From: Terriglobia bacterium
Lineage (GTDB): Bacteria > Acidobacteriota > Terriglobia > 20CM-2-55-15
NCBI GenBank assembly: GCA_965198225.1
Contig: CBDAOY010000007.1
Span: forward strand, 990,045 to 1,054,044
Length of the DNA stretch: 64,000 nucleotides
Direction of reading: 5' to 3'
Positions 3,403 through 58,837 of this stretch are shown here, piece by piece. Both the position numbers and the translations under genes were made by a program. The notes under the pieces are model-generated. The model was given only the letters and a program-made list of their open reading frames with translations. It did not search any database and was not told where the DNA came from. Numbering within the stretch: position 1 is the stretch's first letter; every line of letters starts with the position of its first letter.

Positions 3403-6400
3403 TCAGTCTTCGCCGCCTTTCCCGGACTTCTTGGACTTATCTGACTTTTCGGATTTGTCCGATTTGCCGGACTTGCCCGACTCCTCAGACTTGTTCGATT
3501 TTCCGGACTTGTCGGACTTACCCGATTTGTCGTCATCGTCGCCTTCGATGTCAGCCTGGATGCGGATCTCTCCCGAGTCGTTGCCGATCGTTAGGTTGAC
3601 CTCGACTGGATTCGAGATACTGTCCAGATTCACGGCCTCCGCCTCGACTCGAAAGTCGAAGGCGTCCGGACCCAGCTCGCGAATCCTCAGCTCCAGCTCG
3701 ATCCCGGCGACCTCGCCTTCAAACTCAAAGATGTCCGCACCACCCTTACGGCGGAACTCCAGCGAACCTGCCGGCAGCGTCAGTTCGAAGACGCCGATGT
3801 TCAGGACAACATCTTCCTGTGACGGGTCGATACCGTCGGAAGCGACGCCCAGCGTGAAAGCTTCCCGGAGGTCGAACTCGCCGTCCGCGCCCGTTTCAAT
3901 CTCAGCGACGGCGGCGAAATCGGCAAATATCTCTGGCTGCGTGTCGCGGATGGTGATCTCCACAGTGTCGTCGACGCAGTCGGAGCGAGAGTTGCAGGCC
4001 CGGAAGGCCGCCGAAACAATGGTATCCGCTCCCACCGACGGTGCGAGGAACGTTGCGCTGGCTCCCGACGTCTCGAAGACGCCGTCGCTGTCTGTGTCCC
4101 ATTCAAGAGTCAGGAACGACACATCGCCCCCTTCCGCGTGGGTAACAGTCCCGTTGAGCGCAATCGACTCTCCTTCGTCGACCTCGTACGGCCCCCCGGC
4201 ATCCGCCGTGATACCGGCGAGATCCTCGTCGCCGAACGTGTCCCCGGGAGCTACTGCTGCTATTTCGTTGCCGTCGGAGTCAACCACCCGAAGTGCAACG
4301 TTGCCCAGATTCTCGACCAGGAACTGTCCCAGCGGGGACTCGGTGACCTTGCCGATCCCGCCCGTCGGGATCGACACGAAGGTGTCAGCGCCGAAGCCGA
4401 CCTCGACTGGCCCACGGAGGACCTCTAAGGTCAGGGACCCGCACAGGAACTTCACGGCATCGTTCTGGTCCAGGTCCACTCCCTGGCCGCACGCCACGAT
4501 GTGCGCCTTTTCGGTCCCGCCCCTGGCGTTGGCGAACAACCCGTTTCCGAACGCGTCCCAAACCGTCACGTGCTGGTCCGCCCGGATCATTATGAAACCG
4601 GAACTAATCCCGTCGCTGAAATCGTCAGAAAAGGTCTGATCGGTGTCCACCTGGTCGATGATCCCGTCGCCGTCCCGGTCTTGCGGACCGATGGCCGTGA
4701 CGCGGCCCCCCACCCCAACGATGGCGCCGACCACCTTGTTCGAAACCGTCCCGTTTTCGTCCACCACCTCGATGACCTGAACGACGGACTCACTGGCCAC
4801 GTAGACCTTCGTCCCGTCCGGACTCACTGTGACGTCACTACCGAACGCCCCCGGCACTGCCGGGACGACGACGTCCTTGACGTTCGTGTCGATAACCGCG
4901 ACTCCAAACGGTCCCATCGCAACGTAGACGAGATGGCCATGGCCGTCTACGGGCTGCGGTGTCACGGCCAGATCGGACGGTACACCTCCAACGCTGATGT
5001 CCTTGACCTTCATGCCGTACTCACTGGTGTTCCTGTCAGCGCCGATGACGGAGACGGTCTTCGCGTTGGCAAAGGTATTCCCCACATAGGCCCACTGACC
5101 GTCGGGCGTCACGAGTACAGGACTGGGCTGGGTACCGACAACGATGTCGAGGGCCTCGGAGGTCTCGGTGTCGATCCGCGTGACCTTTTTCTGTTCGCGC
5201 CGGGTGGCGTAGACCTGAGTGCCGTCCGGGTGCACCGCCACACCGTCGAAGTTTTCCGCTGCTTTACCGGAATGTAAGACGGTCAGACCATGGGTCTCAG
5301 TGTCCATCACGTAGATGTCCGACCTGTTGCCACCCTGGTTGTCATTTTTGTCCTCGTGGACCACGACGAAGAGCTTCGTTCCGTCGGGGCTCACGACCAG
5401 TGCTTCGGGACCTGGTCCAACGACGTCCTCAACGGGGATAGGGACCTTGTGCACCTGTTTGGTGGCCGTGTCGAAGACCACAACGTTTTGGAGGTTGTTA
5501 AGGGAGTCCCGCTCGAGCCCATAGACTTCTGCCCCGTCTGGACGGACTGCGACGGCACCTGGCGCGCGATCAGTCAGGCCCGGCACAAGAGCTCCCGGCA
5601 CCGTTTCGGTGAGCAGGCAGTCATTGGCGGTGTCGATGATGCGGCCGTCGCCGGTATAGGCAAGCGGCCCGCCACCGCCGGTGCACGAAAGGGTGATCTT
5701 CGCGACGAACGCGTCGTTTCCGATTCCAGCGTTTGGCTGCAGCGTATTCCCCTCCTGCGGGAAGTTGGCGGATCCCGTTGTGCCGGCGACATAGACCTCA
5801 CCGAACGGGTTGACCGCGATACCGGAGCCCCTGTCGGCTCCGCTTCCTCCAAGGTAGGTGGAATACACGAGGTCTGTCCCGGAAAGGTTGAACTTGCTGA
5901 TGAAGGCATCGCAGAGCGTGCCATCGTGCAAGTGGGCTACGGGGTCCTCGGGTAGAGGGTCGACGAGTGGGAAACCGGTCATCGGGGCAGTCGTCGAGCA
6001 GCCCTGCCCGGTCACGTAAACGCCCGAGGGGTCTGCCGCGACAGCGTATCCGTAGTCGTCTCCCACGCCGCCCAGGAACGTGGAATACGTGAGATCCGCA
6101 CAGTTGTTGTACTGGACCTGTCCGATCGGGCAGCTCACGAAGGAGGAGTTGCCCGCGGACAGTGCCGCCACAAACACATCGTAAGTCCCACCGCCATGTG
6201 TCTCCTGGTAGGTGCCCGGAAAGCCGAAATTGCTGGAGGAGACAGGGAAGTCCATCGAAATGGTCTCTCCTGTGACCACGATTCCCCACGGACTGAAGGA
6301 TATGCCTCGCGCCAGGTCCCAGCTGGAGCCGCCCAGGTAGGTGGCATACTCCAGACGAGCTATCCCCTGGTTGTTTGTGCCCAGTTCGGCCAGAAAGGCG

Positions 6401-8004
6401 TCGCATCCGCCGCCGTACTGGGTTGAGAAAGGAGTCGCCGAAGGAGGGGTGGGAAAGTCGTCTGAGCAGGTCTGTCCCGTCACGAAGGGGCCGGTCGACT
6501 CGGAGCCGACGATGATTCCCAGACCATCCTCGCTGGACTGGCCCCCAAGGTAGACACCGTAGTCGAAGTCGTGACAGTCGCTGTATTGGATTCCGTTGAT
6601 GTTGCAGGAACTCTCGTTGAAGGGAGTGCTGATATCGAGCTTGACCACGAAGGCGTCCCGGGCAAGCAGCGGATTGTTCACGTCGATGGAGAGCGTGGTC
6701 AGTGCGGATTGGGCGTTGTCGGCAGGGAAGTCCGCCGAGTGGGTTGTGCCGGTAACAAAGACGGAGTTCACGGTGTTCGGTAAGAGCGAGGGTGTCACAG
6801 CCACGCCGAGGGCGAGGTCGTCGCGGCTGCCGCCCAGATAGGTGGAGTACTGGAGTTGCCCGCTGAAGGGCGCGAGCGCAAGCACAAAGCCGTCCAGATC
6901 GGTGCCTCCTAACTTGTTGGGGTCCAATCCCCGGTCAAAGGCGTCGGGAGTCGTGGGGAAGTCCGATGACCTGGTGTGACCTACTACGTACACCGTGCCC
7001 GAGGGCGCCGGGACGATTCCCCTCGCGGACTCGTCGCCTGTCCCTCCGAAGTAGACGGAATAGGCCAGGGCGCCGGAGCTGTCTATCTTGACCACGAAGC
7101 CGTCGTCTCCTGCCGCCGGCGGCACCTGGGTTGCCGGACCGGGCAGTGTGGCGCCCGAGGTGGTCGACCCTGCTACATAAACGTTCCCCTCGCCGTCGAT
7201 GGCGATGCCACGGGCTGAATCCTCGCCCATCCCGCCAAGGTAGCTGGAGTAGCCTAGCTCCAGCACCGGATCGATGACCAGAGTTTTGCTGTCATCGTAT
7301 GCGGCCAGTTGAAAACCGACGACCTGGGATTCTGGATTCAAGAGGTATCCGCCGGGGACCGTTTGCCGCCGACCGTCGATTTCCTGGTAGATGACGGGTT
7401 TTCGAAGTCGAACCTCACCGGTGGAGGTGTCGAGGACGAGGTCCCCGTTCGTGTCGATTTCGACTCTATCCGGACCCTCCAAGGAAACCTTGATGGAGTC
7501 GGGATCAGCCCCGGGCGCAACTATGAAGTCGTGCTCCCAGCGCCGTTGGTTGCCATAGTGAACGAGGTCGATCCCTGGATAGACATTCTGGTATCGGACC
7601 CTTGCGTAGGTTGGGAGGTTGGTGCGCCACTTCTCGGGGTCGCTTCCGATGAAGTAACTGCTCTTGCCTGGCAGCTCCTGGAGGCCGATGATAGCCGATC
7701 CGGAGTCGGCGCCGACGAGCCGCATCCGCACCGCACTTGCCGGGGTTTTGCCGGCGTCGCGCTCACGGAGCAGAAGAACCGCTTCTTCGGAAGTCAGGAA
7801 GAGCGTATAGCCGCTGCCTCGGGAAATGAACCGGACCTCTTCGTCCGCCTGGCCCTGGTTGGGCTCGAAGGCCATCGGTAATTGCACGAAGGTCGCCGGC
7901 AGGCTCTGGTCGACCTTTCCTTCACCCTGGCTGTTGGCCCCCCCGGGGGAAACCACGATTCCGAACAAAAGGCAGACCAAGAAGGCTTTCATCGCCGATC
8001 GCAT
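3403..8004 (-). CDS. Giant secreted beta-propeller repeat protein (SBBP-type and YVTN-type repeats) with a K/S/D-rich C-terminal tail
   Basis: 1533-aa ORF with signal peptide MRSAMKAFLVCLLFGIVVSPGGANSQ. It has many 'YSTYLGGSxxDxxxGIAVxxxGxVYVxGxTxSxDFP' repeats (SBBP beta-propeller signature) and 'VSPDGTKVYVA'-type repeats. The tail is DDDDKSGKSDKSGKSNKSEESGKSGKSDKSEKSDKSKKSGKGGED. Confidence 0.85.
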   Translation of the reverse strand: MRSAMKAFLVCLLFGIVVSPGGANSQGEGKVDQSLPATFVQLPMAFEPNQGQADEEVRFISRGSGYTLFLTSEEAVLLLRERDAGKTPASAVRMRLVGADSGSAIIGLQELPGKSSYFIGSDPEKWRTNLPTYARVRYQNVYPGIDLVHYGNQRRWEHDFIVAPGADPDSIKVSLEGPDRVEIDTNGDLVLDTSTGEVRLRKPVIYQEIDGRRQTVPGGYLLNPESQVVGFQLAAYDDSKTLVIDPVLELGYSSYLGGMGEDSARGIAIDGEGNVYVAGSTTSGATLPGPATQVPPAAGDDGFVVKIDSSGALAYSVYFGGTGDESARGIVPAPSGTVYVVGHTRSSDFPTTPDAFDRGLDPNKLGGTDLDGFVLALAPFSGQLQYSTYLGGSRDDLALGVAVTPSLLPNTVNSVFVTGTTHSADFPADNAQSALTTLSIDVNNPLLARDAFVVKLDISTPFNESSCNINGIQYSDCHDFDYGVYLGGQSSEDGLGIIVGSESTGPFVTGQTCSDDFPTPPSATPFSTQYGGGCDAFLAELGTNNQGIARLEYATYLGGSSWDLARGISFSPWGIVVTGETISMDFPVSSSNFGFPGTYQETHGGGTYDVFVAALSAGNSSFVSCPIGQVQYNNCADLTYSTFLGGVGDDYGYAVAADPSGVYVTGQGCSTTAPMTGFPLVDPLPEDPVAHLHDGTLCDAFISKFNLSGTDLVYSTYLGGSGADRGSGIAVNPFGEVYVAGTTGSANFPQEGNTLQPNAGIGNDAFVAKITLSCTGGGGPLAYTGDGRIIDTANDCLLTETVPGALVPGLTDRAPGAVAVRPDGAEVYGLERDSLNNLQNVVVFDTATKQVHKVPIPVEDVVGPGPEALVVSPDGTKLFVVVHEDKNDNQGGNRSDIYVMDTETHGLTVLHSGKAAENFDGVAVHPDGTQVYATRREQKKVTRIDTETSEALDIVVGTQPSPVLVTPDGQWAYVGNTFANAKTVSVIGADRNTSEYGMKVKDISVGGVPSDLAVTPQPVDGHGHLVYVAMGPFGVAVIDTNVKDVVVPAVPGAFGSDVTVSPDGTKVYVASESVVQVIEVVDENGTVSNKVVGAIVGVGGRVTAIGPQDRDGDGIIDQVDTDQTFSDDFSDGISSGFIMIRADQHVTVWDAFGNGLFANARGGTEKAHIVACGQGVDLDQNDAVKFLCGSLTLEVLRGPVEVGFGADTFVSIPTGGIGKVTESPLGQFLVENLGNVALRVVDSDGNEIAAVAPGDTFGDEDLAGITADAGGPYEVDEGESIALNGTVTHAEGGDVSFLTLEWDTDSDGVFETSGASATFLAPSVGADTIVSAAFRACNSRSDCVDDTVEITIRDTQPEIFADFAAVAEIETGADGEFDLREAFTLGVASDGIDPSQEDVVLNIGVFELTLPAGSLEFRRKGGADIFEFEGEVAGIELELRIRELGPDAFDFRVEAEAVNLDSISNPVEVNLTIGNDSGEIRIQADIEGDDDDKSGKSDKSGKSNKSEESGKSGKSDKSEKSDKSKKSGKGGED

Positions 8005-8301: not shown

Positions 8302-8422
8302 GCTTCGTCCGTAAGAGATCAAATCTGAGAGCCTGGGAAGTGCTGTGATAGCCGCCAGCAAATCAGTAGTCAGTTGCTTTTGGCGCATCCCTAACTGACT
8401 ACCGACTCCTGACTACTAACCA

Positions 8423-9748
8423 TCAATTCTTCCAACTGTCGGCCCACAAAGGCAGGCGCAGCCTGGCCGCACAGCCTTGCCCCTCGCCCCGGTTCTCCAG
8501 TGTCAGGGTACCCTGATGCGCTTCTGCGATCTGTCGGCTCAAAACCAGCCCGATTCCCGAGCCGCCCTTCTTGGTGGTGAAGAAGGGGACGAACAGGTTG
8601 GAGGTGTTCGGCAGGCCCGGGCCTTCGTCTTCAACCCAGATGTGCAGGTGGCCGCCGGAGCGACTCCACCCCGTTCGCACATCACCTCCAGTTTCGAGAG
8701 ACGCGTCGACGGCATTCCGGACCAGGTTGATGAGGAGCTGCTCGATCTGTCCGCCGTCGGCTTCGATCGTGATCGGCGGACCTGGTATCAGGTTGACCGG
8801 CAGGCGCGTCTCCATTCCGACGACTCGACGTACCAGGGTGTCCACATCGACCTCTTCGGGTTTCGGTTGAGGTAGGCGTGCGAGCTTGGAATAGGACTCG
8901 ACGAACTGGATCAGGGAAGCGGATCGGGACGAGATCACCGAGAGACCGTGTTGGACGTCTTCCTCCCAGTCCGCCGGCCGCTGATCGCGCCCGAGCAGGC
9001 TCATGAGACTGCTCGCGATCGAGCTGATCGGTGTCAGGGAGTTGTTCAACTCGTGACCCAGAACGCGCACGATCCTCTGCCAGGTTCGCCTTTCCTCCTC
9101 GCGGAGCGTCCGGCTGAGATCGGACAGAACCAGCAGCTGGTGGGGAAGTCCACCCTGGCGAAAATTTGTCCGGCGGATCTCCCACCGGCCCCCGCCGCCC
9201 GGGAAACCGAACTCGACCAGCCGCGGCGTTTTGCCCTCCAGGCAATGTGCCAGACCCAGTTCGGCGGCGTTCGCGCCGAGCAGGCGTTCCCATGGTCTGT
9301 TCAGGAGGCGTTCGCCGGCACGGTTGACCAGCCGTAGCTTCTGGCCCTCGTCGAAGGAGAGTATCGCGACGTCGATCTCCTCCATGATCTTCTGCAAGAG
9401 CGCGGTTGCCTCGAGCGCGTCCATTCGCTGCCACCGGAGCGTGTCGGCGAGCGCGTTGATTTCTCGCGTCACATCTCCCAGCGCGTCGTCAATTCGGGCA
9501 CTGCTGCCACGGATCGAGTAGTCCCCCTCACGGAGCCCCGCGAGCAGGTTGGAAAGGGTCTGAAGGGGGAAGACCACTTTCTGCCTGGCGCCGAACGCCG
9601 CCCCTAACCAGACCACGAGGATCAACACCGACAGCGTCCACTGGACTTTCGCCGTGTAATCACTGCTCCAGAGGATAATCAGGGAGATGAGCGAGCCGGG
9701 GACCCCGGCGGTGAAGGCGATCCAGAATATGCGCTCTTCGTGTCGCAT
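8423..9748 (-). CDS. Sensor histidine kinase (two TM segments, HAMP, PAS-like, HisKA, HATPase)
   Basis: H-box VLGHELNNSLTPISS. N/G boxes LINLVRNAVDA, VEDEGPGLP, GGSGIGLVLSRQIAEAHQG. N-terminal TM helices. Confidence 0.88.
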   Translation of the reverse strand: MRHEERIFWIAFTAGVPGSLISLIILWSSDYTAKVQWTLSVLILVVWLGAAFGARQKVVFPLQTLSNLLAGLREGDYSIRGSSARIDDALGDVTREINALADTLRWQRMDALEATALLQKIMEEIDVAILSFDEGQKLRLVNRAGERLLNRPWERLLGANAAELGLAHCLEGKTPRLVEFGFPGGGGRWEIRRTNFRQGGLPHQLLVLSDLSRTLREEERRTWQRIVRVLGHELNNSLTPISSIASSLMSLLGRDQRPADWEEDVQHGLSVISSRSASLIQFVESYSKLARLPQPKPEEVDVDTLVRRVVGMETRLPVNLIPGPPITIEADGGQIEQLLINLVRNAVDASLETGGDVRTGWSRSGGHLHIWVEDEGPGLPNTSNLFVPFFTTKKGGSGIGLVLSRQIAEAHQGTLTLENRGEGQGCAARLRLPLWADSWKN

Positions 9749-10246
9749 GGCTCGTTTTAGTTACAAGTAGGCCGTTGTCCGTTATTGTGGCAAATGACTC
9801 GTAGCCGTAAGCTGATCGCTGATGGCCAACTGACCGCCGGCCGGCTGCAGGCCATAGCTATCACCGGCCGCATCGCCGCCACGTGCCACAACAACGGCCT
9901 ACGGATAACGACCTACATCACTCCCACCAACTCATCCTGGCCGGGGACCCGGCGGTGAAGGCAGTCCAGAATATGTAATCGTCGTGTCGCATGGTCCGTT
10001 TCGTTACAAGTAGGCCGTTATCCGTAGGCCGTTATTGTGGTAAATGACTCGTGGCCGGAAGCTGATCGCTGATGGCCGACTTACCCGCCGGCCGGCGGCA
10101 GTCTGGCCACGAGCTATCATCGACCGCTTAGCTGGGACGTGCCACAACAACGGCCTACGGATAACGGCCTACGGCCGCGTCAGCGGCCCAACGGCCTACG
10201 GATAACGACTCACGGCCGCGCCAGCGGCCCAACGGCCTACGCTCAA
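9698..10246. repeat. Two tandem ~245-bp units, each containing a ~150-165-bp palindromic element with ~33-bp GTAGGCCGTTATCCGTAGGCCGTT-type arms, plus two extra 41-bp partial units
   Basis: Unit 1 starts at 9698 and unit 2 at 9943 (GGGGACCC..). The arms are at 9767..9792/9884..9916 and 10010..10042/10140..10172. Unit 1 includes the kinase start codon. Unit 2 carries a diverged decoy copy (MRHDDYIFWTAFTAGSP.. versus MRHEERIFWIAFTAGVPG..). Confidence 0.75.
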
Positions 10247-11617
10247 TCACAACTCGTATCTTTGTATCCGCCTGTACAACGCGCTCCGGCTCAACCCCAG
10301 GGCCTTCGCCGCCTGGCTGACGTTGTTGTCGTACCGCGCGAGAGCCTTGCGGATCAGGAACGCTTCGACCTCCTCCAGGCTCATGTCTTCGACCCGGCCC
10401 GCGGTTTCACGGCCATCGTGCAGACCCAGATCGGCCGAGGTGATCATCTCTCCCTGCGCCATCAGGACGGCCCGCTCGATGGCATGGTCCAGTTCACGAA
10501 CGTTACCCGGCCACGGGTGGTCGACGAGGATCGGCAGTGCTGACGGATCGATACCACGAACCGGCTTGCGATACCGTTTTGCGTAGGTGTTCAAGAAGTG
10601 GATCGCCAGTGGCCGTATATCGTCGCGACGGTCTTTGAGGGAGGGCAGGCGAATCTCGATCGTATTCAGTCGAAACAGCAGGTCCGGGCGGAATCGTCCT
10701 TCGGCAGCTTCCTTGACCAGGTTCGCGTTCGTGGCCGACAGGACACGCACGTTCACGTTGCGTGTCTTGGACGAGCCGACGCGTTCCAACTCCCCGGATT
10801 CCAGGACGCGCAGCAGTTTGGCTTGCTGGGTCAGCGGAACGTTGGCGATCTCGTCGAGAAAGAGCGTTCCGCCGTTGGCCAGCTCAAAGCGCCCGACGCG
10901 GTCGGTCTTGGCATCGGTAAAAGCGCCTTTCACGTGTCCGAACAACTCGCTTTCGAAAACACCTTCCGCAAGTCCGCCGACGTTCACCGTGACCATGGTG
11001 TTCGACGCGCGTTCCGACAGCGCGTGGATGGTGCGTGCGACCACTTCCTTGCCGGTTCCGTGTTCACCTGTGATCAGCACGTTGGCGTCGGAGGGCGCAA
11101 TCCGTGTCATCAACTGGAGCACGGGTTGCATCGTAGCGGACTCGGCGATGAAGCTCGGCCGTCCCTCCGCGCGCAGCAATCGGTTCTCCGCTTCGAGTCG
11201 CTGCTCGTTCCGCAACGTTCGGCAGAGTTCGATCTGCGTGCGCACGATCGCCAGGAGGCGGGGGTTTTCCCACGGCTTCTGGATGAAATCCCGGGCCCCA
11301 CGACGCATTGCCTCGACGGCCAGCTCGATCGTACCCCAGGCCGTCATCACGACCACGGGCAGAGTGCTGTCGATGGTGCTGATTTTGGTCAGCAGGTCGA
11401 GTCCCTCCTGCCCGGAGGTGGTGTCCCTGGCGTAATTGAGATCCACGATCGCGACGTCGAAATCGCGCGCTTCGATCGCACTGAGGATACCCGACGGCGT
11501 CGTCGCGGCCTCGGTTCGATACCCTTCAGCCTTCAACAGAAGCCGCAGGGCCTCGAGGACGTCGGACTGATCATCCGCAATCAAGACCTGGGCCGGGGAA
11601 GCGCTTCGGTTTCTCAT
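10247..11617 (-). CDS. Sigma-54-dependent two-component response regulator (REC + AAA+ + Fis-type HTH)
   Basis: REC domain VLIADDQSDV..DVAIVDLNY. Walker A GEHGTGKE. ESELFGHVKGAFTDA (GAFTGA-type loop). C-terminal HTH AAKALGLSRSALYRRIQRY. Confidence 0.92.
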   Translation of the reverse strand: MRNRSASPAQVLIADDQSDVLEALRLLLKAEGYRTEAATTPSGILSAIEARDFDVAIVDLNYARDTTSGQEGLDLLTKISTIDSTLPVVVMTAWGTIELAVEAMRRGARDFIQKPWENPRLLAIVRTQIELCRTLRNEQRLEAENRLLRAEGRPSFIAESATMQPVLQLMTRIAPSDANVLITGEHGTGKEVVARTIHALSERASNTMVTVNVGGLAEGVFESELFGHVKGAFTDAKTDRVGRFELANGGTLFLDEIANVPLTQQAKLLRVLESGELERVGSSKTRNVNVRVLSATNANLVKEAAEGRFRPDLLFRLNTIEIRLPSLKDRRDDIRPLAIHFLNTYAKRYRKPVRGIDPSALPILVDHPWPGNVRELDHAIERAVLMAQGEMITSADLGLHDGRETAGRVEDMSLEEVEAFLIRKALARYDNNVSQAAKALGLSRSALYRRIQRYEL

Positions 11618-22300: not shown

Positions 22301-22347
22301 GTCGTAGGCCGTAGGCAGTTGTGCGCGGGGGTCCGTTCAGCTTAACG

Positions 22348-22404
22348 GTCCGCGAGAGAGCCATCGTGAGGGGACAGGGCTAGCCCTGTCCCAGGGTGTT
22401 CGCT
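22348..22404. repeat. Inverted-orientation copy of the GGGGACAGGG..CCCTGTCCCC repeat family
   Basis: gtccgcgagagagccatcgtgaGGGGACAGGGCtaGCCCTGTCCCa aligns with the reverse complement of the units at 32133..32400. Confidence 0.65.
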
Positions 22405-25413: not shown

Positions 25414-25688
25414 CTAGTGACCTGTAACAGTGCTATCGGTACCAGCGTTCGGCGGAACGGCGTCGGATTCTAGGAGTGACGCCCGAGCCAATGCTGTTTC
25501 ATTGCGAGGGCGTTACGACACCGAAGACGGCGCCGTTCCGACGAACCCTTCGGGCCGATGGGGGTTGCGGGCGATCTCTTTGTCGGAAGCCGTCACCGAT
25601 GAAAGAGCATCGCTTTCCGTCTCCCTCCTCGACCTCGCCCGCAAGACCCATCGGCGATGGTGCCGATAGCACTGTTACAGGCCACTAG
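25414..25688 (+). mobile_element. 275-bp MITE-like element with ~30-bp terminal inverted repeats, copy 1
   Basis: CTAGTGACCTGTAACAGTGCTATCGGTACC ... GGTGCCGATAGCACTGTTACAGGCCACTAG (28 of 30 complementary). It has internal long hairpins. It matches 34705..34979 at 271 of 275 positions by eye, in the same orientation. Confidence 0.7.
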
Positions 25689-27671: not shown

Positions 27672-27791
27672 CGTGAGGCCCAATGTCCAAAGTCCGAGGT
27701 TCAAAGTCCGAGGTCCAAAGTCCAAGGTCGAATGTCTGGAGATCAGTTAATGACGTCGGACAGTGGACTTCGGACCGTGGACTGATTCCCG
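27672..27791. repeat. Intercistronic heptamer-phased repeat hairpin (GTCCAAA GTCCGAG GTTCAAA GTCCGAG GTCCAAA GTCCAAG .. inverted GTGGACTTCGGAC)
   Basis: Seven GT-phased 7-mers are followed by an inverted partial copy. It fills the spacer between the binding-protein gene and the first permease gene. Confidence 0.7.
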
Positions 27792-28712: not shown

Positions 28713-28898
28713 AGAAGTTATGCGTAGGCCGTTATCCGTTGTCGGAAGAGGAGCTACCAACTCACAACGACGTACCAACGGCCTACGGCCTACTGAACCG
28801 AGGAAGTTATGAGTAGTCAGCTGTCAGTAGTCAGTTTTGGGAAAGGGATGGCGTACCGCCCAACGGCCTACGGACAACGGCTTACGACTTATTGACGA
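28713..28898. repeat. Intercistronic repeat cluster (GTAGGCC/GTTATCC and AGTAGTC/AGCTGTC heptamer words with inverted partners)
   Basis: CGTAGGCCGTTATCCGTTGTCGG..CCAACGGCCTACGGCCTAC, then GAGTAGTCAGCTGTCAGTAGTCAGTTTTGG..CCAACGGCCTACGGACAACGGCTTAC. Confidence 0.7.
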
Positions 28899-31034: not shown

Positions 31035-31039
31035 GAGAC

Positions 31040-45077: not shown

Positions 45078-45256
45078 GGGGTGTCTCCTGATTCAATGCG
45101 AAGGGCAAGTTCTCCGAACGAATCATTTGATCGACTTTTCTTCAGCCGATATTGTAAGCGAAGTCACCGAGATGGGAAGGGTAGCGTGGATGTCAAAGAC
45201 GAGAGAGGTGAGGGGCGCCGGCAGACGATGACGCGACCTGCCGGCGTCTGCGCCTT

Positions 45257-45915
45257 ATCCCGGGCGTCGACGCATCTCTTCCCGGGTGATGAATCCATCA
45301 TCGTCCGCGTCGAGGCGGTCGAAGGCCTCAGTCGGTCGGGTCCACTCGTCACGAGAAACCTTGCCGTCGCCGTCTTCATCCATCTGGAGCATCGCGGCTC
45401 CCCGGCCACGTCCGCCTCTGCCCGGGCGGGAGTTCTGCATCTCTTCGAGAGTGATGAAGCCGTCGCCATCGGCGTCCATGGTCTCGAACATCTGCGCGGG
45501 ACCCGGAAACTCCTGCTGCGACACGCGTCCATCGCCATCGCTGTCGAGCCCCTGGAAACGGGCTTGAGGGTCTGCGCCTCTTCCGCCTCTATCCCGGGCG
45601 TCGCCATCTCTTCCCGAATCCATCATCGTCCGCGTCGAGGCGGTCGAAGGCCTCAGTCGGTCGGGTCCACTCGTCACGAGAAACCTTGCCGTCGCCGTCT
45701 TCATCCATCTGGAGCATCGCGGCTCCCCGGCCACGTCCGCCTCTGCCCGGGCGGGAGTTCTGCATCTCTTCGAGAGTGATGAAGCCGTCGCCATCGGCGT
45801 CCATGGTCTCGAACATCTGCGCGGGACCCGGAAACTCCTGCTGCGACACGCGTCCATCGCCATCGCTGTCGAGCCCCTGGAAACGGGCTTGAGGGTCTGC
45901 GCCTCTTCCGCCTCT
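45257..45915. repeat. Tandem direct duplication (334 bp + 325 bp) inside the EF-hand coding region
   Basis: 45257..45590 and 45591..45915 are identical by eye except for a roughly 9-10-nt indel cluster at the start of each unit (..GACGCATCTCTTCCCGGGTGATGAATCC versus ..GCCATCTCTTCCCGAATCC). Confidence 0.85.
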
Positions 45916-46746
45916 GCCGCGGCCGCCCCCGAATTGCCGCTGGATTTCGTCACGAGCGAGGAGACCATCATCGTTTCGATCGAGCCGGTCGAACGTCTCG
46001 CCGTCGCCCGTCCACTCTTCCCGTGAGATTGTACCGTCCTCGTTCGTGTCCATGACGCCCATACCGCCCGCAGTCCCGGGCCTCTGCCCCGGCCGAGGGC
46101 GCATACCACGCATGCCGCGGCCGCGACGCTGTCCCTGTTCCTGTCCGTAGGCGGTGATCTCCCCTCTGAGAGCGACCTCGAGCGCTGCCCTGGCTTCGGG
46201 GACATCGAACCCGGCCGGCCCGGGGCGTCCCTTGAAGGCGATGGTGCCGTCGGAGCCCACGACATAGATCCGGTCGGGAAACGCGGCGTACGCATTCGCC
46301 GTCCGGTCGTCGATCTTGTCCAGAATGGTCGGCATCGAGATGTCCAAGGCGGTCGTACAGATGTTGGCTGCTTCCTGGCGCTGCTCGTCGGTTTTGGCTT
46401 GTTCGATCAGGATGCCGTCGATAACATTCGCCGCTCCGAGGTTGCCGTCGGTGGGATGCGCTTCTCGAATGTAGACGAAGAAGAAATTGGCGCGGTCCTT
46501 GTAAGCCTGGTACCAGTTTTCGATGTCCACGACATCGCGGCGGAACGGGCCTCAGGTATAGCTGGCGAAGATCAGCGCGGTCGGTCTGCCCGTCATCTCA
46601 GAAAGCGTAATCTTTTGCTTTCCGTCTTTTGTACTGAGCGTGAAATCAGGCGCCGTATCTCCAGGCGTGGGGCCGCCGCCTCGCCGCTGGGCCGTGGCAG
46701 GGCTCACCAGGACGAGGACCAATAACGCAGACGCGAATGTTCTCAT
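45589..46746 (-). CDS. Candidate selenoprotein: secreted deiodinase-like thioredoxin-fold domain (in-frame TGA = Sec) fused to EF-hand repeats
   Basis: Track ORFs 46552..46788 and 45589..46530 are in one frame. Read through TGA 46554..46552 they give ..TALIFASYT-U-GPFRRDVVDIENWYQAYKDRANFFFVYIREAHPTDG... The ATG at 46746 is preceded by GGAGGAG and is followed by signal peptide MRTFASALLVLVLVSPATAQ. There are five intact EF-hand loops plus one truncated loop. Confidence 0.6.
46521..46537 (-). promoter_or_regulatory. Candidate bacterial SECIS hairpin
   Basis: The RNA CGAUGUC-GUG-GACAUCG starts 14 nt after the UGA. It is a 7-bp perfect stem with G/U in the apical loop. Confidence 0.4.
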
Positions 46747-52611: not shown

Positions 52612-53751
52612 ATGCGCGTGCTCTCTTTTTCGCTGCAAGGCCTTAAAACCGGGTTATTTCTGCTATTCGCATCACTGCTGGCCGTGTCGGCGCCGATTCA
52701 GGCCAGCGCGCAGGCGAACAGCCCTCCGGCGGTGACGGGGCCAACCAGCGTCGACTACGCCGAGAACAGCGAGGAGACGGTGGCCACGTATATCGCTACG
52801 GACCCGGAGGCCGAAGCAATCGCGTGGAGCGTGTCCGGGACGGACCATGCGCTGTTTTCCATCACTGCGGGTGTCCTGGAGTTCCTGAGCCCGCCGAACT
52901 ACGAGAGGCCTATCGACGAGGGCGAAGACAACGCGTATGAGGTGGGCGTCACGGCCACGGATTCCTCCGGGGCGGCCGCCACCGTTGCGGTCACCGTGAC
53001 GGTAACAGACGTCAACGACCCGAACATCGTCCTCATCATGGCGGACGATGTCGGTTATGAGGCCTTTGGGGCATACGGTAGCGCACAGTACAGAACGCCG
53101 CGAATTGATGAGCTTGCAGCCGCGGGAGTTCGCTTCACGAACGCTTACTCAAACCCGGTATGCACCCCGAGCAGAGTTGCCTTGATGACGGGTAAGAGCA
53201 GTGTCAGGAACTATGTGGATTTCGGAGTTCTACTCCCCGGAGAATACACGATTACTGATCTCTTTAGTGGGGCCGGATACGCAACGGCCATCGCCGGAAA
53301 GTGGCAGCTTCACGGTAGTGTCGTAGGTAGTGACGTAGTGGCTGGTGTCCCTGCCGGAACCGGATTCGACACGTATTCCTTGTGGAATACAGCCAACACG
53401 GGTCGTAGTCGCTACTGGAATCCTTCCATCGAACGCGACGGTGAAATCATCGATCTGGGCAGCGAGGATTACGGGCCCGACATATTCACGAATTTCCTGC
53501 TGGAATTCATAGAGTCCAACAGAGATAAACCGTTTTTCGCCTACTACCCGATGGTGCTTCCTCATGATCCGTTCGGCTCGCCGCCGCAAGCCCAATGCGT
53601 CGATACCGCTGACGGACAGTGCAATTTCGAGGACATGGTCGCGTATCTCGATTACAACGTCGGCCGCATACGCGACAAGCTGGCGGACCTGGAGCTACTC
53701 GACAACACAATCCTCATATTCACCTCCGACAACGGAACTCACGCACGCTGA
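52612..53751 (+). CDS. Signal peptide + cadherin-like domain + sulfatase N-terminal part (continues in the +1 frame; see 53738..58837)
   Basis: MRVLSFSLQGLKTGLFLLFASLLAVSAPIQASA. VTVTDVNDPNIVLIMADDVGY. Formylglycine motif CTPSR. The frame ends ..IFTSDNGTHAR*, in the middle of the sulfatase domain. Confidence 0.8.
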   Translation: MRVLSFSLQGLKTGLFLLFASLLAVSAPIQASAQANSPPAVTGPTSVDYAENSEETVATYIATDPEAEAIAWSVSGTDHALFSITAGVLEFLSPPNYERPIDEGEDNAYEVGVTATDSSGAAATVAVTVTVTDVNDPNIVLIMADDVGYEAFGAYGSAQYRTPRIDELAAAGVRFTNAYSNPVCTPSRVALMTGKSSVRNYVDFGVLLPGEYTITDLFSGAGYATAIAGKWQLHGSVVGSDVVAGVPAGTGFDTYSLWNTANTGRSRYWNPSIERDGEIIDLGSEDYGPDIFTNFLLEFIESNRDKPFFAYYPMVLPHDPFGSPPQAQCVDTADGQCNFEDMVAYLDYNVGRIRDKLADLELLDNTILIFTSDNGTHAR

Positions 53752-56700
53752 TCTGATTTCAGAACTCGGGGGAGAAATGATCCATGGGGATAAGAACATG
53801 CCCAACAATGGCGGCACGCGGGTACCGCTGATAGTCAGCGTTCCAGGAGGTGAGGGGGGACGGGTGTTCGACGACCTGATCGACTTCACCGACTTTCTCC
53901 CGACTCTGGCTGATGCGGCAGGTCTTACGATTCCTGACGTCAATATGCTGGACGGCGTGAGTTTTTGGGACAGGCTTCAAGGCCGAACCGGCCAACCGCG
54001 GGAATGGATATATACCTATTACTTCCCACGTCCGTTCGCCGATAGGTTCGACAATCCGCAACGTCATCCAGAGGCGTCGTATGTCCGAGACAAGCGGTAC
54101 CAGCTCTACGGAACAGGAGAGTTCTTCGACATTTCCGTAGACCCTCACCAAGTGCATCCGTTGCCGAGTGACGATGAAGAGTCCAGCGCCGCCCGTACCA
54201 AGCTGCAAGCGGTTCTCGACTCGATGCCGGGGAGAGGTGAGGAGATTTACCCATATTTGATAGGAACTGTCCCGGACTCTGAGCCGCGCCCGCGATGGCG
54301 GCCCGTCCTGTCGAAAGCAACTGTGAACGGCGGCCAATTGACGCTCACTTACGCCGGAATTCTGGACTCAAGAGAAGCGCCTCCCGCAGATTCCTTCATT
54401 GTGAACGTTGATGGTTCCGAGCGTGCGGTCTCCACAGTTTCGATAAGCAAAACAGCGGTTACGCTTACACTCGCTTCGGCGGTTACAGTTGGCCAGACGG
54501 TGACGTTGAATTACACGCCGGGAACGAATGCGATTCAGCACGCGAACAGGCCATTCGGGCACAAAGCGGCACCCCTGGTTCGCCAAGGGGTGACGAACAA
54601 CACTGTGGACACGACGGCGCCGGCGGTGTTGTCGATCACGAGCGACGCGACGCACCCGACGAAGAACGCTTTCACGGTGACGATAACCTTTTCGGAGGAG
54701 GTGAGGGGACTCACGGCGGGGGAGATCGCGGTCACCAATGGCACGGGCTCGAACTTTGCGGGCACAGGCGCGAGCTACATGCTCGACATCGAACCCAGCG
54801 ACGATATCGAAGCCGACGTGACGGTCCGGGTTCCGGCCGATGCGGCGATGGACGCCGCGAACCTCGGCAACATCGAGGGGATCGAGACCTTCGCGGTGGA
54901 CACCCAGGCGCCGGCGGTGTTGTCGATCACGAGCGACGCGACACACCCGACGAAGGATGCTTTCAGGGTGACGATCACCTTTTCGGAGGCGGTGACGGAG
55001 CTCACGTCGCAGGATATCGCGGTCATGAACGGAGTGGGCTCGAACTTCGCGGGCACGGACGCGCGCTACACGCTCGACATCGAGCCCAGCGCCAATACCG
55101 AAGACGATGTGACGGTCCGGGTTCGGGCCAACGCGGCGGTGGACGGCGTGAACATCGGCAACGTCGAGGGGATCGAAACCTTTGCGGTGGACACCCAGGT
55201 GCCGAGGGTGTTGTCGATCACAAGCGACGCGGCGCACCCGACGAAGGATACTTTCACGGTAACGATCACCTTTTCGGAAGAGGTGACGGGGCTGACGGCG
55301 AGTGAGATCGTGGTCAGCAATGGCCGTGGCTCGAACTTCGCGGGCACGGGCGCACGCTACACGCTCGACATCGCTCCGAACGCCAACCTTGAAGCCGATG
55401 TGACGGTCCGGGTTCGAGCCAACGCGGCGGTGGACGGCGCGAACAACAGCCACGTCGACGAGGGCGAGACCTTCGCTGTGGACACGCGGGCACCGGTGTT
55501 GATGAGCGCTGCGGTGGATGGCGACACGCTGACGCTGAGCTATGGGGAGGCGCTGGGCAACCCGACACCGGAGCCGGGCGATTTCACGATGAATGTGGAG
55601 AGCGCTGGGCGGAGCGTTTCCAGGGTGGCGGTGAGCGGAAGAGCGGTGACTTTGACGCTTGCCTCGGCCGTGGCGCATGGCGAGACGGTGAGAGTGAGCT
55701 ACAGCCCGGGGACGAACCCGATCCAGGACGCGGTGGGCAACCAGGCTCTGGGACTGAGCAACGCGTCGGCCACCAACACTACGGATGCACCCAACACGGA
55801 TCCGATGATCACGAGTCCGGGGCCGTTCAATGTCACTGAGAATCAAGCGCGGGTGACCCGGCTGATGGCGGCCGACGCCGACCCGGGGGACGAGGTCACC
55901 GGCTATACGCTTGTCGGCGGAGCCGATCGGGCCCAGTTCACGGTCGGTGAGGATACCGGAGATCTGGGCTTCCGGGCGGTTCCGAACTTTGAAGCGCCCA
56001 CGGATGCCTTCAGTAACGATCCGCCAAGTGGGGCAGGAGACAACGAGTACATCGTGGTGGTCCAGGTCAGCAGCGGGGCAGGAACGCGGGTGCGGACGGC
56101 GGAACAGACGATTCGCGTGCGGGTGAGTGACGTGGAGGAGCTTCCAGCGGCGCCGGAGGAGCCGACTTTTCCGAGGGCGACGCCGGACAGCCTGACGGTG
56201 GCGTGGACGGAGCCGGACAACACCGGGCCGCCCATCACCGGCTATGACGTGCAATACCGGGAAGGCGTCAGCGGCGGCTTCACGGATGCGCCGCACTCCG
56301 GGACGGCCCAAACCACAACGCTCATGGGGTTGAGCGAGGGCACGGCCTACCAGGTGCAGGTGCGGGCGAGGAACGCGGAAGGAACAGGTGACTGGTCGGA
56401 GCCGGGCGAAGGACGGACCGTGGCCCCGCTGAGGGTTCGGATGACGCCGGAGCTGGAGCCGCCGGTGGAGGGCCCGTTCTCGGTGAGGTTCAGCTTTTCG
56501 GAGACGGTGACGGGTTTCAGCGGAAGCGACATCGAGACGGGTCAGGACCTTGCCTGCATGGACGATCAGAACAACCCGGTGTTCTGCAACCCCGGCTTTG
56601 CGGCATTCGAGACCACGGATAGCCGGGTCTTCACCACCCGCGTGACCCCGAGGACCGGCGGGGTGGCCAATAACTACAAGCTCACGCTCACGGTGCGTGC

Positions 56701-58837
56701 CGGCGGAGTGAGATCGTCTGTCGGCAATAAGCCTAACGAGGAGGCGACGCTTGAGGTGCCGGTGGCGCCGCCGGGGGTGACGGTGCCGATCGGGCCGCTG
56801 GGGCTGACGGCGAGCGGGGGAAACGGCCAGGTGGCGCTCCGGTGGAATGCCCCGGGGGACACCGGGGGCGCCGCGATGGTCCGCTACGAATACCGGGTGG
56901 CGGATGGCGTCGGCGGGGAGTTCGGCGCCTGGATGCGGGTGGATGCGGCGGCGAGGTCCGCGCCGGTCCCCGATCTGACGAACGGCCGGGAATACGTCTT
57001 CGAGCTGAGGGGGGTGAACGCCCTGGGCTACGGCGGGGTGGAGACCGTGCGAGCCACCCCGGTGCGCACCACCACCGGGGACGGAGGAGGCAGAGGAGGC
57101 GGCGGGGGTGGGGGCGCCCTCCGCGGGACAGTGCCGGGCGCGCCGACGAACCTGACGGCTGAGGGCGGGGACGGCCAGGTCGTACTGAGTTGGGACGCCC
57201 CGGAAAGCGACGGCGGGGCGGCGATCACCGATTACGAGTATTGGAACGGCGGGAGTCGGACCTGGACCTCCATCGGTTCCACGAACACCACCCATACGGT
57301 CACCGGCCTCGACAACGGAACGGAATACACCTTCCAGGTGCGGGCGGTCAACCGAAGGGGCCGGAGCCGGGCTTCCAACCGGGCTACGGCGACGCCGGAC
57401 GTGTTTATCCTGGACTTTGCGCATTTCGCCAATGGCGCGTCCATTACCTCCGATCTGGTGCTGGTGAACCCGGGAAGCATCCCGATCCGGCCCGTCGTTT
57501 ATTTCTACGACACCGGGGGCAATCCAATTAACGCCGAATCGGTGGTGGACGTCACCGGTGATCTGACGGTCGCCGAGGACGGTGCCTTGACGGTCCTGGC
57601 GGATATGGAGCCACTCAGAGAACTCACGATTGCGACCCACGGTCGGGGAGCGCTCGTGAGTGGATCGGTGAAGGTTGTCTCTTACGGTCCTGTCGGCGGG
57701 TTCCTGCGCTATAACGTCCCGGATGTCGGCGTGGCCGGTGTGGGAGCGAGCCCGCCCACACGGGATGTCCTTTTCCCGGCCCGCCGCGAGGCGGGAGGCA
57801 TCAATACGGCGGCGGCGATCCAGAACCTGGGAGAGGCACCGCTGGAGGTGAGCTGCCGATTGATGCGCGCGGGCGCGGTGCTGGAAGAGGCGGAGATCGC
57901 TCTTGCGCCCAACGGGCAGTCGAGTGTCTTTATCGACGAACAATTCCCCGCCACCGATACGTCCGACTTCGCGGGGTCGATGCACTGCGACGCCCCAGCG
58001 ACGTTCACCGGTGTGGCGGTCGAGATGGATGCTGTCCACCGCATCTTTACGGCACTGCCGGTGGTTTCCGCGGATCGGCTCAGCGGCGGCAGTGCGACGG
58101 TCCTGGACTTTGCGCATTTCGCCAATGGAGGTTCCATCACCTCCGATCTGGTGTTCGTGAATCTGAAGACCCGTCCGAGCGGGCCCGCGCCCACTCCCTT
58201 TCAGATGGCCATCCCTCCGAGCCGCCCTGCCATCCATTTCTACGACACGGAGGGCAATCCGATGGCGACCGAATCGGTGGTGGACATCACCGGCGATCTG
58301 GAAGTCACCGAAGACGGCGCCCTGACGGTCCGGACGGAGATGGAGCCCTTGGGCGTGCTCACGATTTCGACTCACAGCCGGGGCGATCTGGTGACCGGAT
58401 CGGTGAAGGTGGTCTCGGAGGGTCCCATCGGCGGGATGCTCCGCTTTGACCTCCCCGGCATCGGCGAGGCCGTGGTGGGGGCCAGCGAGCCCCTCAGCGA
58501 CTTCCTCTTCCCGGTGCGCCGCCAGGAGGGAGGCATCAACACGGGGGTCGCGATCCACAACCTGGAATCGAGTCCGGAGTTGGTGCGCTGCGAACTGCTG
58601 CGCGAGGGCGTGCTGCTCGATACCGTGAGCATCCCTCTTGAGGCCAACGGGCAGACCTCCGGGTTCATCGACGGGCGATTCCCCAGCGTCGATACGTCCG
58701 ACTTCGTGGGGTTGGTACGCTGCAATGCAGTCGGTGAGGGGCTCTTCAGTGCCGTCGCCCTGGAACTGGATGCCGCCAACCGCATCTTTACCACACTGCC
58801 AGTGATCCCGCTGCAAGAGACGATGTCTCAGGAATAG
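53738..58837 (+). CDS. Sulfatase C-terminal part + SwmB-like, Ig-like x3, cadherin-like, FN3 x3 and two ~220-aa C-terminal beta domains (giant surface protein)
   Basis: The frame-2 sequence THADLISELGGEMIHGDKNMPNNGGTRVPLIVSVPGG..DFLPTLADAAG continues the sulfatase fold, followed by the repeat domains. The track ORF start at 53564 is upstream filler. Confidence 0.8.
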   Translation, partial: LTHADLISELGGEMIHGDKNMPNNGGTRVPLIVSVPGGEGGRVFDDLIDFTDFLPTLADAAGLTIPDVNMLDGVSFWDRLQGRTGQPREWIYTYYFPRPFADRFDNPQRHPEASYVRDKRYQLYGTGEFFDISVDPHQVHPLPSDDEESSAARTKLQAVLDSMPGRGEEIYPYLIGTVPDSEPRPRWRPVLSKATVNGGQLTLTYAGILDSREAPPADSFIVNVDGSERAVSTVSISKTAVTLTLASAVTVGQTVTLNYTPGTNAIQHANRPFGHKAAPLVRQGVTNNTVDTTAPAVLSITSDATHPTKNAFTVTITFSEEVRGLTAGEIAVTNGTGSNFAGTGASYMLDIEPSDDIEADVTVRVPADAAMDAANLGNIEGIETFAVDTQAPAVLSITSDATHPTKDAFRVTITFSEAVTELTSQDIAVMNGVGSNFAGTDARYTLDIEPSANTEDDVTVRVRANAAVDGVNIGNVEGIETFAVDTQVPRVLSITSDAAHPTKDTFTVTITFSEEVTGLTASEIVVSNGRGSNFAGTGARYTLDIAPNANLEADVTVRVRANAAVDGANNSHVDEGETFAVDTRAPVLMSAAVDGDTLTLSYGEALGNPTPEPGDFTMNVESAGRSVSRVAVSGRAVTLTLASAVAHGETVRVSYSPGTNPIQDAVGNQALGLSNASATNTTDAPNTDPMITSPGPFNVTENQARVTRLMAADADPGDEVTGYTLVGGADRAQFTVGEDTGDLGFRAVPNFEAPTDAFSNDPPSGAGDNEYIVVVQVSSGAGTRVRTAEQTIRVRVSDVEELPAAPEEPTFPRATPDSLTVAWTEPDNTGPPITGYDVQYREGVSGGFTDAPHSGTAQTTTLMGLSEGTAYQVQVRARNAEGTGDWSEPGEGRTVAPLRVRMTPELEPPVEGPFSVRFSFSETVTGFSGSDIETGQDLACMDDQNNPVFCNPGFAAFETTDSRVFTTRVTPRTGGVANNYKLTLTVRAGGVRSSVGNKPNEEATLEVPVAPPGVTVPIGPLGLTASGGNGQVALRWNAPGDTGGAAMVRYEYRVADGVGGEFGAWMRVDAAARSAPVPDLTNGREYVFELRGVNALGYGGVETVRATPVRTTTGDGGGRGGGGGGGALRGTVPGAPTNLTAEGGDGQVVLSWDAPESDGGAAITDYEYWNGGSRTWTSIGSTNTTHTVTGLDNGTEYTFQVRAVNRRGRSRASNRATATPDVFILDFAHFANGASITSDLVLVNPGSIPIRPVVYFYDTGGNPINAESVVDVTGDLTVAEDGALTVLADMEPLRELTIATHGRGALVSGSVKVVSYGPVGGFLRYNVPDVGVAGVGASPPTRDVLFPARREAGGINTAAAIQNLGEAPLEVSCRLMRAGAVLEEAEIALAPNGQSSVFIDEQFPATDTSDFAGSMHCDAPATFTGVAVEMDAVHRIFTALPVVSADRLSGGSATVLDFAHFANGGSITSDLVFVNLKTRPSGPAPTPFQMAIPPSRPAIHFYDTEGNPMATESVVDITGDLEVTEDGALTVRTEMEPLGVLTISTHSRGDLVTGSVKVVSEGPIGGMLRFDLPGIGEAVVGASEPLSDFLFPVRRQEGGINTGVAIHNLESSPELVRCELLREGVLLDTVSIPLEANGQTSGFIDGRFPSVDTSDFVGLVRCNAVGEGLFSAVALELDAANRIFTTLPVIPLQETMSQE
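54605..55477 (+). repeat. Three tandem 291-bp (97-aa) Ig-like domain repeats within the giant CDS
   Basis: Units start at GTGGACAC (54605, 54896, 55187) and the array ends at 55477. The protein repeat is VDTxAPxVLSITSDAxHPTKxxFxVTITFSEEV.. Confidence 0.85.

Follow-up and report, generated by a model that had tools for sequence, protein, structure and literature searches.

Repetitive extragenic palindrome (REP) and bacterial interspersed mosaic element (BIME) sequences of Escherichia coli have been proposed to protect the 3' ends of mRNA and to allow differential expression within operons, and the short tandemly repeated repetitive (STRR) sequences of cyanobacteria are tandem heptamer arrays in intergenic DNA, with several word families per genome. 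GTAG-tagged REPs and acidobacterial tyrosine transposases associated with terminal inverted repeats (TIRs) have been described (PMC3733652). Heptamer arrays are also found near gene starts, with TAACTGA repeats in Beggiatoaceae, Cyanobacteria and Bacteroidetes, and a post-transcriptional role has been proposed for them (PMC4679880). Regarding tandem heptamer intergenic arrays in Acidobacteria, no paper was found in a limited search of open-access papers and bioRxiv. Here we analysed the spacer between the genes of a sigma-54 response regulator and a histidine kinase in a 64,000-nt stretch of DNA (the window) from a soil member of the Terriglobia (Acidobacteriota) with a G+C content of about 61%. 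The spacer holds an array of two units, each with a long hairpin, the G-type element, whose arms are made of tandem words. The array is probably an unstable segmental duplication of an intra-operon spacer around a hairpin that resembles REPs and their hairpin-forming doublets (REPINs) or STRR sequences; the locus is an ordinary, recombination-prone repeat locus and not a new system. Its features, by position in the window, are the following.

10247..11617, minus strand: sigma-54-dependent response regulator of the NtrC type, 456 aa (open reading frame (ORF) list; Pfam Response_reg, Sigma54_activat, AAA_lid_14, HTH_8)
10148..10241, minus strand: 41-nt sub-repeat, 2.3 copies, extending the outer (regulator-side) arm of unit 1 (Tandem Repeats Finder (TRF) period 41, 92% matches, score 160; repeat family D1)
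10010..10172, minus strand: hairpin element of unit 1, G-type, with arms at 10142-10172 and 10010-10040 made of GTAGGCC/GTTATCC words (inverted repeat I1)
9993..10009, minus strand: copy of the kinase leader (CTTGTAACGAAACGGACC) before the decoy start (unit alignment)
9992..9918, minus strand: decoy kinase start, an ORF of 24 codons, MRHDDYIFWTAFTAGSPARMSWWE followed by a stop (translations, sequence)
9917..9938, minus strand: duplication junction, where kinase nt 54 meets what remains of the regulator 3' end with its stop region (AGGATGAGTTGGTGGGAGTGAT) (junction comparison with contig L001)
9767..9916, minus strand: hairpin element of unit 2, G-type, with arms at 9886-9916 and 9767-9796 (inverted repeats I2 and I4), 87% identical to unit 1
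9749..9766, minus strand: leader of the real kinase start (CTTGTAACTAAAACGAGCC), with no obvious Shine-Dalgarno-like motif (sequence)
8423..9748, minus strand: histidine kinase, 441 aa (Pfam HATPase_c; 441-aa homologues at 100% coverage)

Like REP, BIME and REPIN sequences, the G-type element is a short extragenic repeat just past stop codons, often inside an operon, and its words begin with GTAG. As in REPs and REPINs, an inverted doublet lies in a long hairpin (z = -5.6 to -9.1 for the spacers of L003, L005 and the window), several families occur per genome and their content varies among strains. In contrast to these, the arm (GTAGGCCGTTATCCGTAGGCCGTT) is not self-complementary and no 20-40-bp palindrome stands next to GTAG; the arms are tandem 7/14-nt words about 100 nt apart around a structured core, and the copies are diverged and apparently few. 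Only the 41-nt sub-repeat has a GGCCGC-N4-GCGGCC hairpin 7 nt from a GTAG. Tandem 7-nt intergenic words near gene ends, several families and variation by whole words are found here as in STRR and TAACTGA arrays, whereas the Terriglobia host, the words themselves and the pairing of complementary arrays into long hairpins are different. With miniature inverted-repeat transposable elements (MITEs) the element shares inverted repeats of about 31 nt, a length of 150-230 bp, the lack of coding sequence and a diverged second copy in a sibling genome, but it is without target-site duplication, sharp ends or near-identical dispersed copies. The features of an ordinary tandem duplication are all present, namely one novel junction, exact gain and loss of units between perfect repeats and signs of gene conversion; nothing essential sets the array apart, although its unit, unusually, spans an intergenic gap, with remnants of the ends of the two flanking genes and a long palindrome at its centre. 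By resemblance only, the G-type element may be placed among low-copy, diverged families of REP/REPIN- or STRR-like word hairpins.

Structure of the two-unit array

Both genes are on the minus strand, and the spacer between them covers 498 bp (9749-10246). It is composed of two direct, head-to-tail units with a mean column identity of 82% (MAFFT, 9698-9942 against 9943-10246); in gapless blocks of 59-64 nt the identity is 83-89%, and BLAST aligns the units at 82.8% over 174 nt (E = 2e-39). An earlier interpretation of the window made without database searches (the sequence-only reading) had described two units of 245 bp. The two direct units stand, but the regulator-proximal one (unit 1) is about 304 bp long because of the 41-nt sub-repeat in its outer arm, each copy of which consists of a small GGCCGC-N4-GCGGCC hairpin and the words GTGAGTCGTTATCCGTAGGCCGTT. 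TRF did not report the period of about 245 bp and gave only this sub-repeat in the spacer. Between units, the gaps in the aligned arms measure exactly 7 or 14 nt.

The duplicated segment runs from approximately 10-15 nt before the regulator stop codon, through the hairpin element, to kinase nt 54. At the regulator end, the tail of the gene reads ...AAGATACGAGTTGTGA-TTGAGC, and its last 10-15 nt or so and the 6-nt post-stop spacer belong to the segment. At the kinase end, the segment includes the first 54 nt of the coding sequence (CDS; 9695-9748), so that the unit boundary does lie inside the kinase gene, as had been proposed. The position of the kinase start codon is conserved among homologues of 73-98% identity (aligned starts), and the real start translates as MRHEERIFWIAFTAGVPGS... 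A second copy of the 18-nt leader and of the initial 54 nt of the kinase CDS lies at 9939-10009; over these 54 nt, this first decoy departs from the real start by a 1-nt deletion and six substitutions (13%), and it is frameshifted at codon 16. On the gene strand, each decoy is followed by the junction AGGATGAGTTGG..GA.. and then by the left arm; AGGATGAGTTGG..GA matches the regulator tail with its TTGAGC spacer. Judged from its sequence, the repeat is one segmental tandem duplication of the whole stretch from one gene end to the other: since the units carry both the regulator-tail relic and the kinase start, they derive from a segmental duplication and not from two transpositions.

The diverged copy of the kinase start had been noticed in the sequence-only reading, and it is confirmed with an ORF of 24 codons, seven longer than had been written; the regulator 3'-end relic in the unit and the polymorphism of one, two or three units were missed. 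The decoy ORF is absent from relatives with one unit or no element and is thus not a conserved leader peptide. With a divergence (13%) equal to that of the unit as a whole, plus the frameshift, decoy 1 looks like a neutral relic, and it may be translated as a short upstream ORF. The possibility that the motif GAGTTRTGA is part of the element and not of the regulator gene was ruled out, as a relative without any element (L015) has the motif; in more distant relatives the regulator gene ends in RYDI and a stop codon where GAGTTRTGA stands.

Regarding the hairpin, the arms of unit 1 (10010-10040 and 10142-10172) are 31 nt long and 97% complementary, which bears out the description of the element as palindromic, and the core of about 101 nt between them is itself nearly palindromic. 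In unit 2 the kinase-side (left) arm is one 7-nt word shorter, and the inverted-repeat tool gives only 19 nt at 84%. Arms of about 33 bp had been claimed; inverted arms are present, of 31 nt in unit 1 and degraded in unit 2. The whole spacer has a predicted RNA fold of -261.7 kcal/mol (z = -9.1). The arm word GTAGGCCGTT, with at most one mismatch, has 21 sites in the window against 2.8 +/- 1.6 in shuffled sequences, a number that none of 100 shuffles reached; sites outside the spacer include 22304-22320 and 28724-28885. The variant word GTAGTCAGTT has six sites against 1.2 expected, at 8366-8402 and 28813-28836. Both sets agree with the positions at which related fragments had been noted before. 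Arrays of period 7 reported by TRF start at 8394, 10150, 22293, 27680, 28778 and 28812.

In Rfam, only tRNA reached the gathering threshold in the window and no model matched 9600-10400 at E <= 1; the whole spacer had no match in a plasmid collection (distant blastn). No site in the spacer fits the sigma-54 -24/-12 consensus with up to two mismatches, and the 58 sites in the window against 51 expected are no enrichment, with a consensus that may not fit Acidobacteriota. A sigma-54 promoter within the element was considered, because of the likeness of the arm end TTGTGGCAC to a -24 box, and rejected, as the -12 GC is displaced by one position in all units.

The spacer in near-identical strains and in relatives

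A metagenome contig from another sample (L001) is 99.987% identical to the window over 7,765 nt upstream of the array (one mismatch) and 99.77% identical downstream. It has units 1 and 2 as in the window and a third unit of 278 bp, giving a spacer of 776 bp. This arrangement in an independent contig, together with the unit identities, supports the earlier claim of a real tandem duplication. Within L001, units 1 and 2 are 87% identical, units 1 and 3 87% and units 2 and 3 91.5%, that is, a divergence of 9-13%. The junction between units 2 and 3 reads AGGATGAGTTGGGATTGAGC-GTAGGCCGTT and matches the regulator tail GAGTTGTGATTGAGC; it is the regulator 3' end and post-stop spacer (AAGATACGAGTTGTGA-TTGAGC-GTAGGCCGTT) with a mutated stop codon. 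A single junction type, kinase nt 54 joined to the regulator-tail relic, is therefore present in the window and at both L001 junctions. The same relic at all junctions indicates one founding duplication, and two independent transpositions cannot explain the array.

In L001, a stretch of 78 nt comprising the right end of unit 2 and decoy 2 recurs without a mismatch at the right end of unit 3 and the real start. When the 278 bp between these perfect repeats (L001 positions 7683 and 7961) were removed in silico, the product matched the window with one mismatch in 702 nt. At the 8.5% divergence of units 2 and 3, about 6.6 differences would be expected in 78 nt and none was found (Poisson P of about 0.001, our own estimate), which points to gene conversion or constraint. 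A contig from a further sample (L002) confirms decoy 2, the second junction and unit 3, and ends inside the array; in it, 75 nt of the hairpin core are deleted between ACGG (4-nt) microhomologies. Length changes of the arms involve complete 7-nt words, and in one strain a hairpin core was deleted at a 4-nt microhomology.

The orthologous spacer in more distant relatives is as follows (kinase identity to the window; z of the RNA fold where given).

L003/L004: kinase 98% aa identity; spacer 136 nt; GTAGTCAGTT-word (T-type) hairpin with unrelated core, z = -5.6
L005/L006: kinase 93% aa identity (about 88% nt, flanking genes); spacer 206 nt; exactly one G-type element, z = -7.7
L015: kinase 92% aa identity; spacer 24 nt; no element
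L016: kinase 87% aa identity; spacer 131 nt; GTCCAAAGTCCGAG words, z = +0.4
L008-L010: kinase 86% aa identity; spacer 96 nt; GTGGTCA and CTAACAG words, no hairpin (L008 z = -0.1)
L022: kinase 83% aa identity; spacer 111 nt; no words, z = -0.5

The comparison of relatives called for by the sequence-only reading thus yields one, two or three units, no element, or an unrelated word hairpin. In the window, L003 and L005 the elements begin 0-6 nt after the regulator stop codon. The single element of L005/L006 is 84.5% identical to each unit of the window, and because these relatives carry a single unit, one unit would be the simplest assumption for the ancestor. The clade as a whole does not conserve the hairpin, with no significant hairpin in L008, L016 and L022 and no element in L015; since several relatives do without it in this spacer, the element is dispensable, and it is most likely selfish or neutral. 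In L015 (1635-3000) the regulator was called in three pieces of 180, 119 and 144 aa, which probably reflects a frameshift; DDE transposase genes flank the locus, and the kinase was called with an N-terminal extension of eight residues from a GTG directly after the regulator stop. A different family of intergenic repeats, with units of about 62 nt containing GGAGGGGTGG..TGCACC-N-GGTGCAGACGGGGTGGTT, is present in L015 (4380-4620), in tandem downstream of the kinase, and in L012 (2480-2700), downstream of another gene.

Word hairpins and repeats outside the spacer

The sequence-only reading had called the element MITE-like. Terminal inverted repeats are present in unit 1 and degraded in unit 2, but comparison with the empty site of L015 (24-nt spacer) gave neither a target-site duplication nor a sharp end, with no alignable flank or direct repeat; near-identical dispersed copies are also lacking and the local pair results from the duplication of the locus, so the name is weakly supported. 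There is no second full copy of the element within the 64-kb window. Scanning 185,579 GTDB species genomes for the exact 19-nt boundary of arm and core gave one relevant match, in arm words only; this single pattern, which allows no mismatch, missed the one-mismatch copy of L003/L004 and undercounts diverged copies. JGI metagenomes contained no exact match to the 24-nt arm. Homology in the core was otherwise found only in a G-type element downstream of the kinase in the sibling genome L003/L004, 70-76% identical (E = 3e-10), where it reaches about 35 nt into the core. The G-type element is therefore not confined to the regulator-kinase spacer. Transposases are found in the loci of relatives (DDE_Tnp_1, IS21, IS1595 and Mu-type), none of them adjacent to G-type arms, and no gene for a REP-associated tyrosine transposase (RAYT) was found among the 16 window ORFs scanned with Pfam, which cover part of the window, or among the called genes of the relatives' loci. 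In contrast, the window contains a true MITE, in two copies of 275 bp (25414-25688 and 34705-34979) that are 98.5% identical (four mismatches), with terminal inverted repeats of 34-40 nt (CTAGTGACCTGTAACAGTGCTATCGG...), sharp ends at CTAG and unrelated flanks.

Word hairpins directly after stop codons appear, on sequence grounds, to be present in many intergenic gaps of this Terriglobia lineage. One of them follows the kinase, and three lie in an opp-like ABC transporter operon (25761-32122; SBP_bac_5 substrate-binding protein, two permeases, two ATPases), all three intergenic gaps of which hold hairpins with arms of tandem 7-, 9- or 14-nt words.

8365..8417, minus strand: T-type hairpin of the words AGTAGTCAGTT / AACTGACTACT, immediately behind the stop codon of the kinase (sequence; RNA fold -34 kcal/mol, z = -5.05)
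27680-27783: opp-like gap, words GTCCAAAGTCCGAG, RNA fold z = -3.7
28722-28890: opp-like gap, words GTAGGCCGTT and AGTAGTC, RNA fold z = -1.3
29839-29979: opp-like gap, words CACGGATTA, RNA fold z = -7.2

The T-type copies have AGGGAYG beside the arm in common, and further T-word arms were found in L001 (18845-19060) and L016 (1350-1470). In the second opp-like gap, GAAGTTATG(A/C)GTAG precedes each of the two word arms (28713-28730 and 28798-28815). It resembles the regulator tail and element start, GAGTTATGA-GTAG in L005 and GAATTATGA-GTAG in L003, and may be a conserved element end including the TGA, or a coincidence. Downstream of the operon (32133-32400) lies a 138-bp tandem repeat of 1.9 copies that are 88-90% identical, each with the palindrome GGGGACAGGGCTATACCCCTGTCCCC; a similar palindrome, GGGGACAGGGCTAGCCCTGTCCC, stands after a peptidase gene (22366-22392), beside heptamers with GTAGG words.

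In JGI/ENA metagenomes, the relaxed pattern GTAGGCCGTT-N4-GTAGGCCGTT matched seven contigs (L023-L029) of 48-71% G+C, all as tandem 14-mers, with the linkers GGCG, CAAT, CCGC, GACC and CAGT and mostly just past the apparent end of a coding region (by eye). Only L027 has a complementary arm (ACGGCCTAC, about 60 nt away). These matches are inseparable from a chance sampling of the many tandem 14-mers of the collection.

Other repeats of the window lie within ORFs. A 9/18-nt tandem array (GACTTGTCC, about 11 copies; 3434-3531) stands at the 3' end of the DUF7948/beta-propeller ORF 3403..8004 (minus strand, 1533 aa), where it would encode a repetitive C-terminal tail rich in Lys, Ser and Asp. Inside ORF 45255..46295 (minus strand) there is a 325-bp tandem duplication of 1.9 copies with 100% identity (45291-45915), which is either very recent or an assembly artefact. 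Repeats of 291 bp (54605-55496; 3.1 copies, 81-86% identical) and of about 735 bp (57408-58804) are presumably repeated protein domains of the 1757-aa ORF 53564..58837.

Origin of the array

We propose that the ancestor carried one G-type hairpin element of about 200 bp between the regulator stop and the kinase start, with arms of tandem 7/14-nt GTAGGCC GTTATCC words. The segment from 10-15 nt or so before the regulator stop through kinase nt 54 would then have been duplicated head-to-tail once, as the shared junctions suggest, and the copy number would have changed afterwards by homologous unequal recombination between units. The palindrome and the word arrays may promote the replication slippage and recombination that made the array and remodel it. 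Regarding expression, one to three stable RNA hairpins and the short upstream ORFs would uncouple kinase from regulator translation, probably lowering the kinase, and the hairpins could shield the upstream mRNA from 3' exonucleases, like the REP/BIME elements of E. coli.

Several points qualify this account. The arm and core pairs are nearly invariant in the four close copies, which gives no covariation support for a selected RNA structure; with five copies the covariation term is unfavourable (+5.68), and the three double changes all come from the poorly aligned fifth sequence. Simple consensus patterns, which may not fit Acidobacteriota, detected neither a sigma-70-like promoter nor an intrinsic terminator in 9500-10500; the lack of a match in the spacer is consistent with co-transcription, and the regulator and kinase are probably transcribed together. 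Co-transcription, formation of the hairpins in vivo and an effect on the kinase level are all inferred. The difference between two and three units could in principle be a collapse of the 78-83-nt perfect repeat by the assembler, or a real recombinant. Furthermore, the element types swap sides of the kinase between the window and L003/L004, whose flanking genes are 92-95% identical at the nucleotide level (L003): in the window the G-type lies upstream and the T-type (8365-8417) downstream, and in L003 the T-type lies upstream (3865-4000) and a diverged G-type downstream (5323-5450), with homology between the two breaking exactly at the gene ends. This suggests a process of mobility or replacement that simple duplication does not explain.

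A mobile origin of both units would require two insertions of a MITE- or REPIN-like element with GTAGGCCGTT terminal inverted repeats, moved in trans by, for example, a RAYT or TIR-associated (TIRYT) tyrosine transposase. We regard this as unlikely. The 31-nt arms with their 97% complementarity fit such an element, as do words that start with GTAG like those of GTAG-tagged REPs and the report of TIR-associated tyrosine transposases in Acidobacteria (PMC3733652); the diverged copy with core homology at a second locus of the sibling genome, and the swap of the spacer for an unrelated element in a genome with flanks of 92-95% nucleotide identity, also speak for mobility. However, each unit holds the kinase leader, 54 nt of its CDS and the regulator-tail relic, as a duplication of the locus would leave; comparison with the empty L015 site reveals neither a target-site duplication nor a sharp boundary; the 64 kb contain no further full copy, and the exact 19-nt scan, which misses diverged copies, gave one words-only match; and single arms, unlike REPs, are not self-palindromic. 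Could the strain differences instead reflect a selected tunable attenuator or contingency locus, in which the number of units sets the kinase-to-regulator ratio and recombination switches between states? Decoy 1 carries a frameshift and its divergence matches the neutral rate, there is free drift in unit length and in the arms, and several relatives have no hairpin in this spacer, so that it is not a conserved regulatory device. These observations make the attenuator quite improbable, even though two or three units and a core-deleted unit occur among strains with flanks of 99.8-99.99% identity, the ATG and leader are kept in each decoy, and decoy 2 of L001 matches the real start over 78 nt where about 6.6 differences were expected, by gene conversion or constraint.

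Protein-binding sites are a further explanation of the GTAGGCCGTT words, either as enhancer- or iteron-like sites of the adjacent sigma-54 activator or as sites of another DNA- or RNA-binding protein, multiplied by the duplication. The over-representation of the words (21 against 2.8 expected) and their direct and inverted arrangement with 14-nt spacing agree with it, and heptamer arrays elsewhere have been proposed as sites of post-transcriptional regulators (PMC4679880). Yet the same words stand in unrelated places (the opp-like operon, after the peptidase gene), the orthologous spacer of close relatives has unrelated words or none, and no sigma-54 -24/-12 promoter is nearby, which makes this explanation very unlikely. 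An assembly artefact, the refutation that the sequence-only reading had itself named, is hardly credible. Repeats of this size often confuse metagenome assemblies, L002 ends inside the array, and the two-unit form is the product expected from collapsing the 78-nt perfect repeat; but a divergence of 13% between the units speaks against the mis-joining of one identical repeat, an independently assembled contig of another sample has the same sequence for units 1 and 2 and for the junction between them, and the junction of units 2 and 3 was recovered in two samples. A broader idea, which we put forward as doubtful, is that the GTAG-word hairpins (G-type with GTAGGCCGTT, T-type with GTAGTCAGTT, and others) constitute a class of Terriglobia elements not described before, mobile or generated by the host. 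They would settle just past stop codons in intergenic gaps, replace one another between genomes with flanking genes of 92-95% identity, as with the G- and T-type on opposite sides of the kinase in the window and L003, and seed arrays whose number of units tunes downstream translation, here the kinase-to-regulator ratio of a sigma-54 two-component system.

Segmental duplication of the spacer has practical as well as biological consequences. The decoy ATG and the regulator-tail relic can mislead gene callers, and the array breaks or collapses metagenome contigs, as in L002. The locus offers a clean natural example of a long intergenic palindrome that appears to have nucleated a segmental duplication including the ends of both genes; in strains that are almost identical, the resulting array has since changed by slippage of whole words, by loss of hairpin sequence and probably by unequal recombination. 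Many intra-operon gaps of this Terriglobia lineage hold hairpins of tandem 7-9-nt words from several families. An effect of these hairpins on mRNA stability or on translational coupling, if there is one, would amount to a lineage-wide layer of control within operons.

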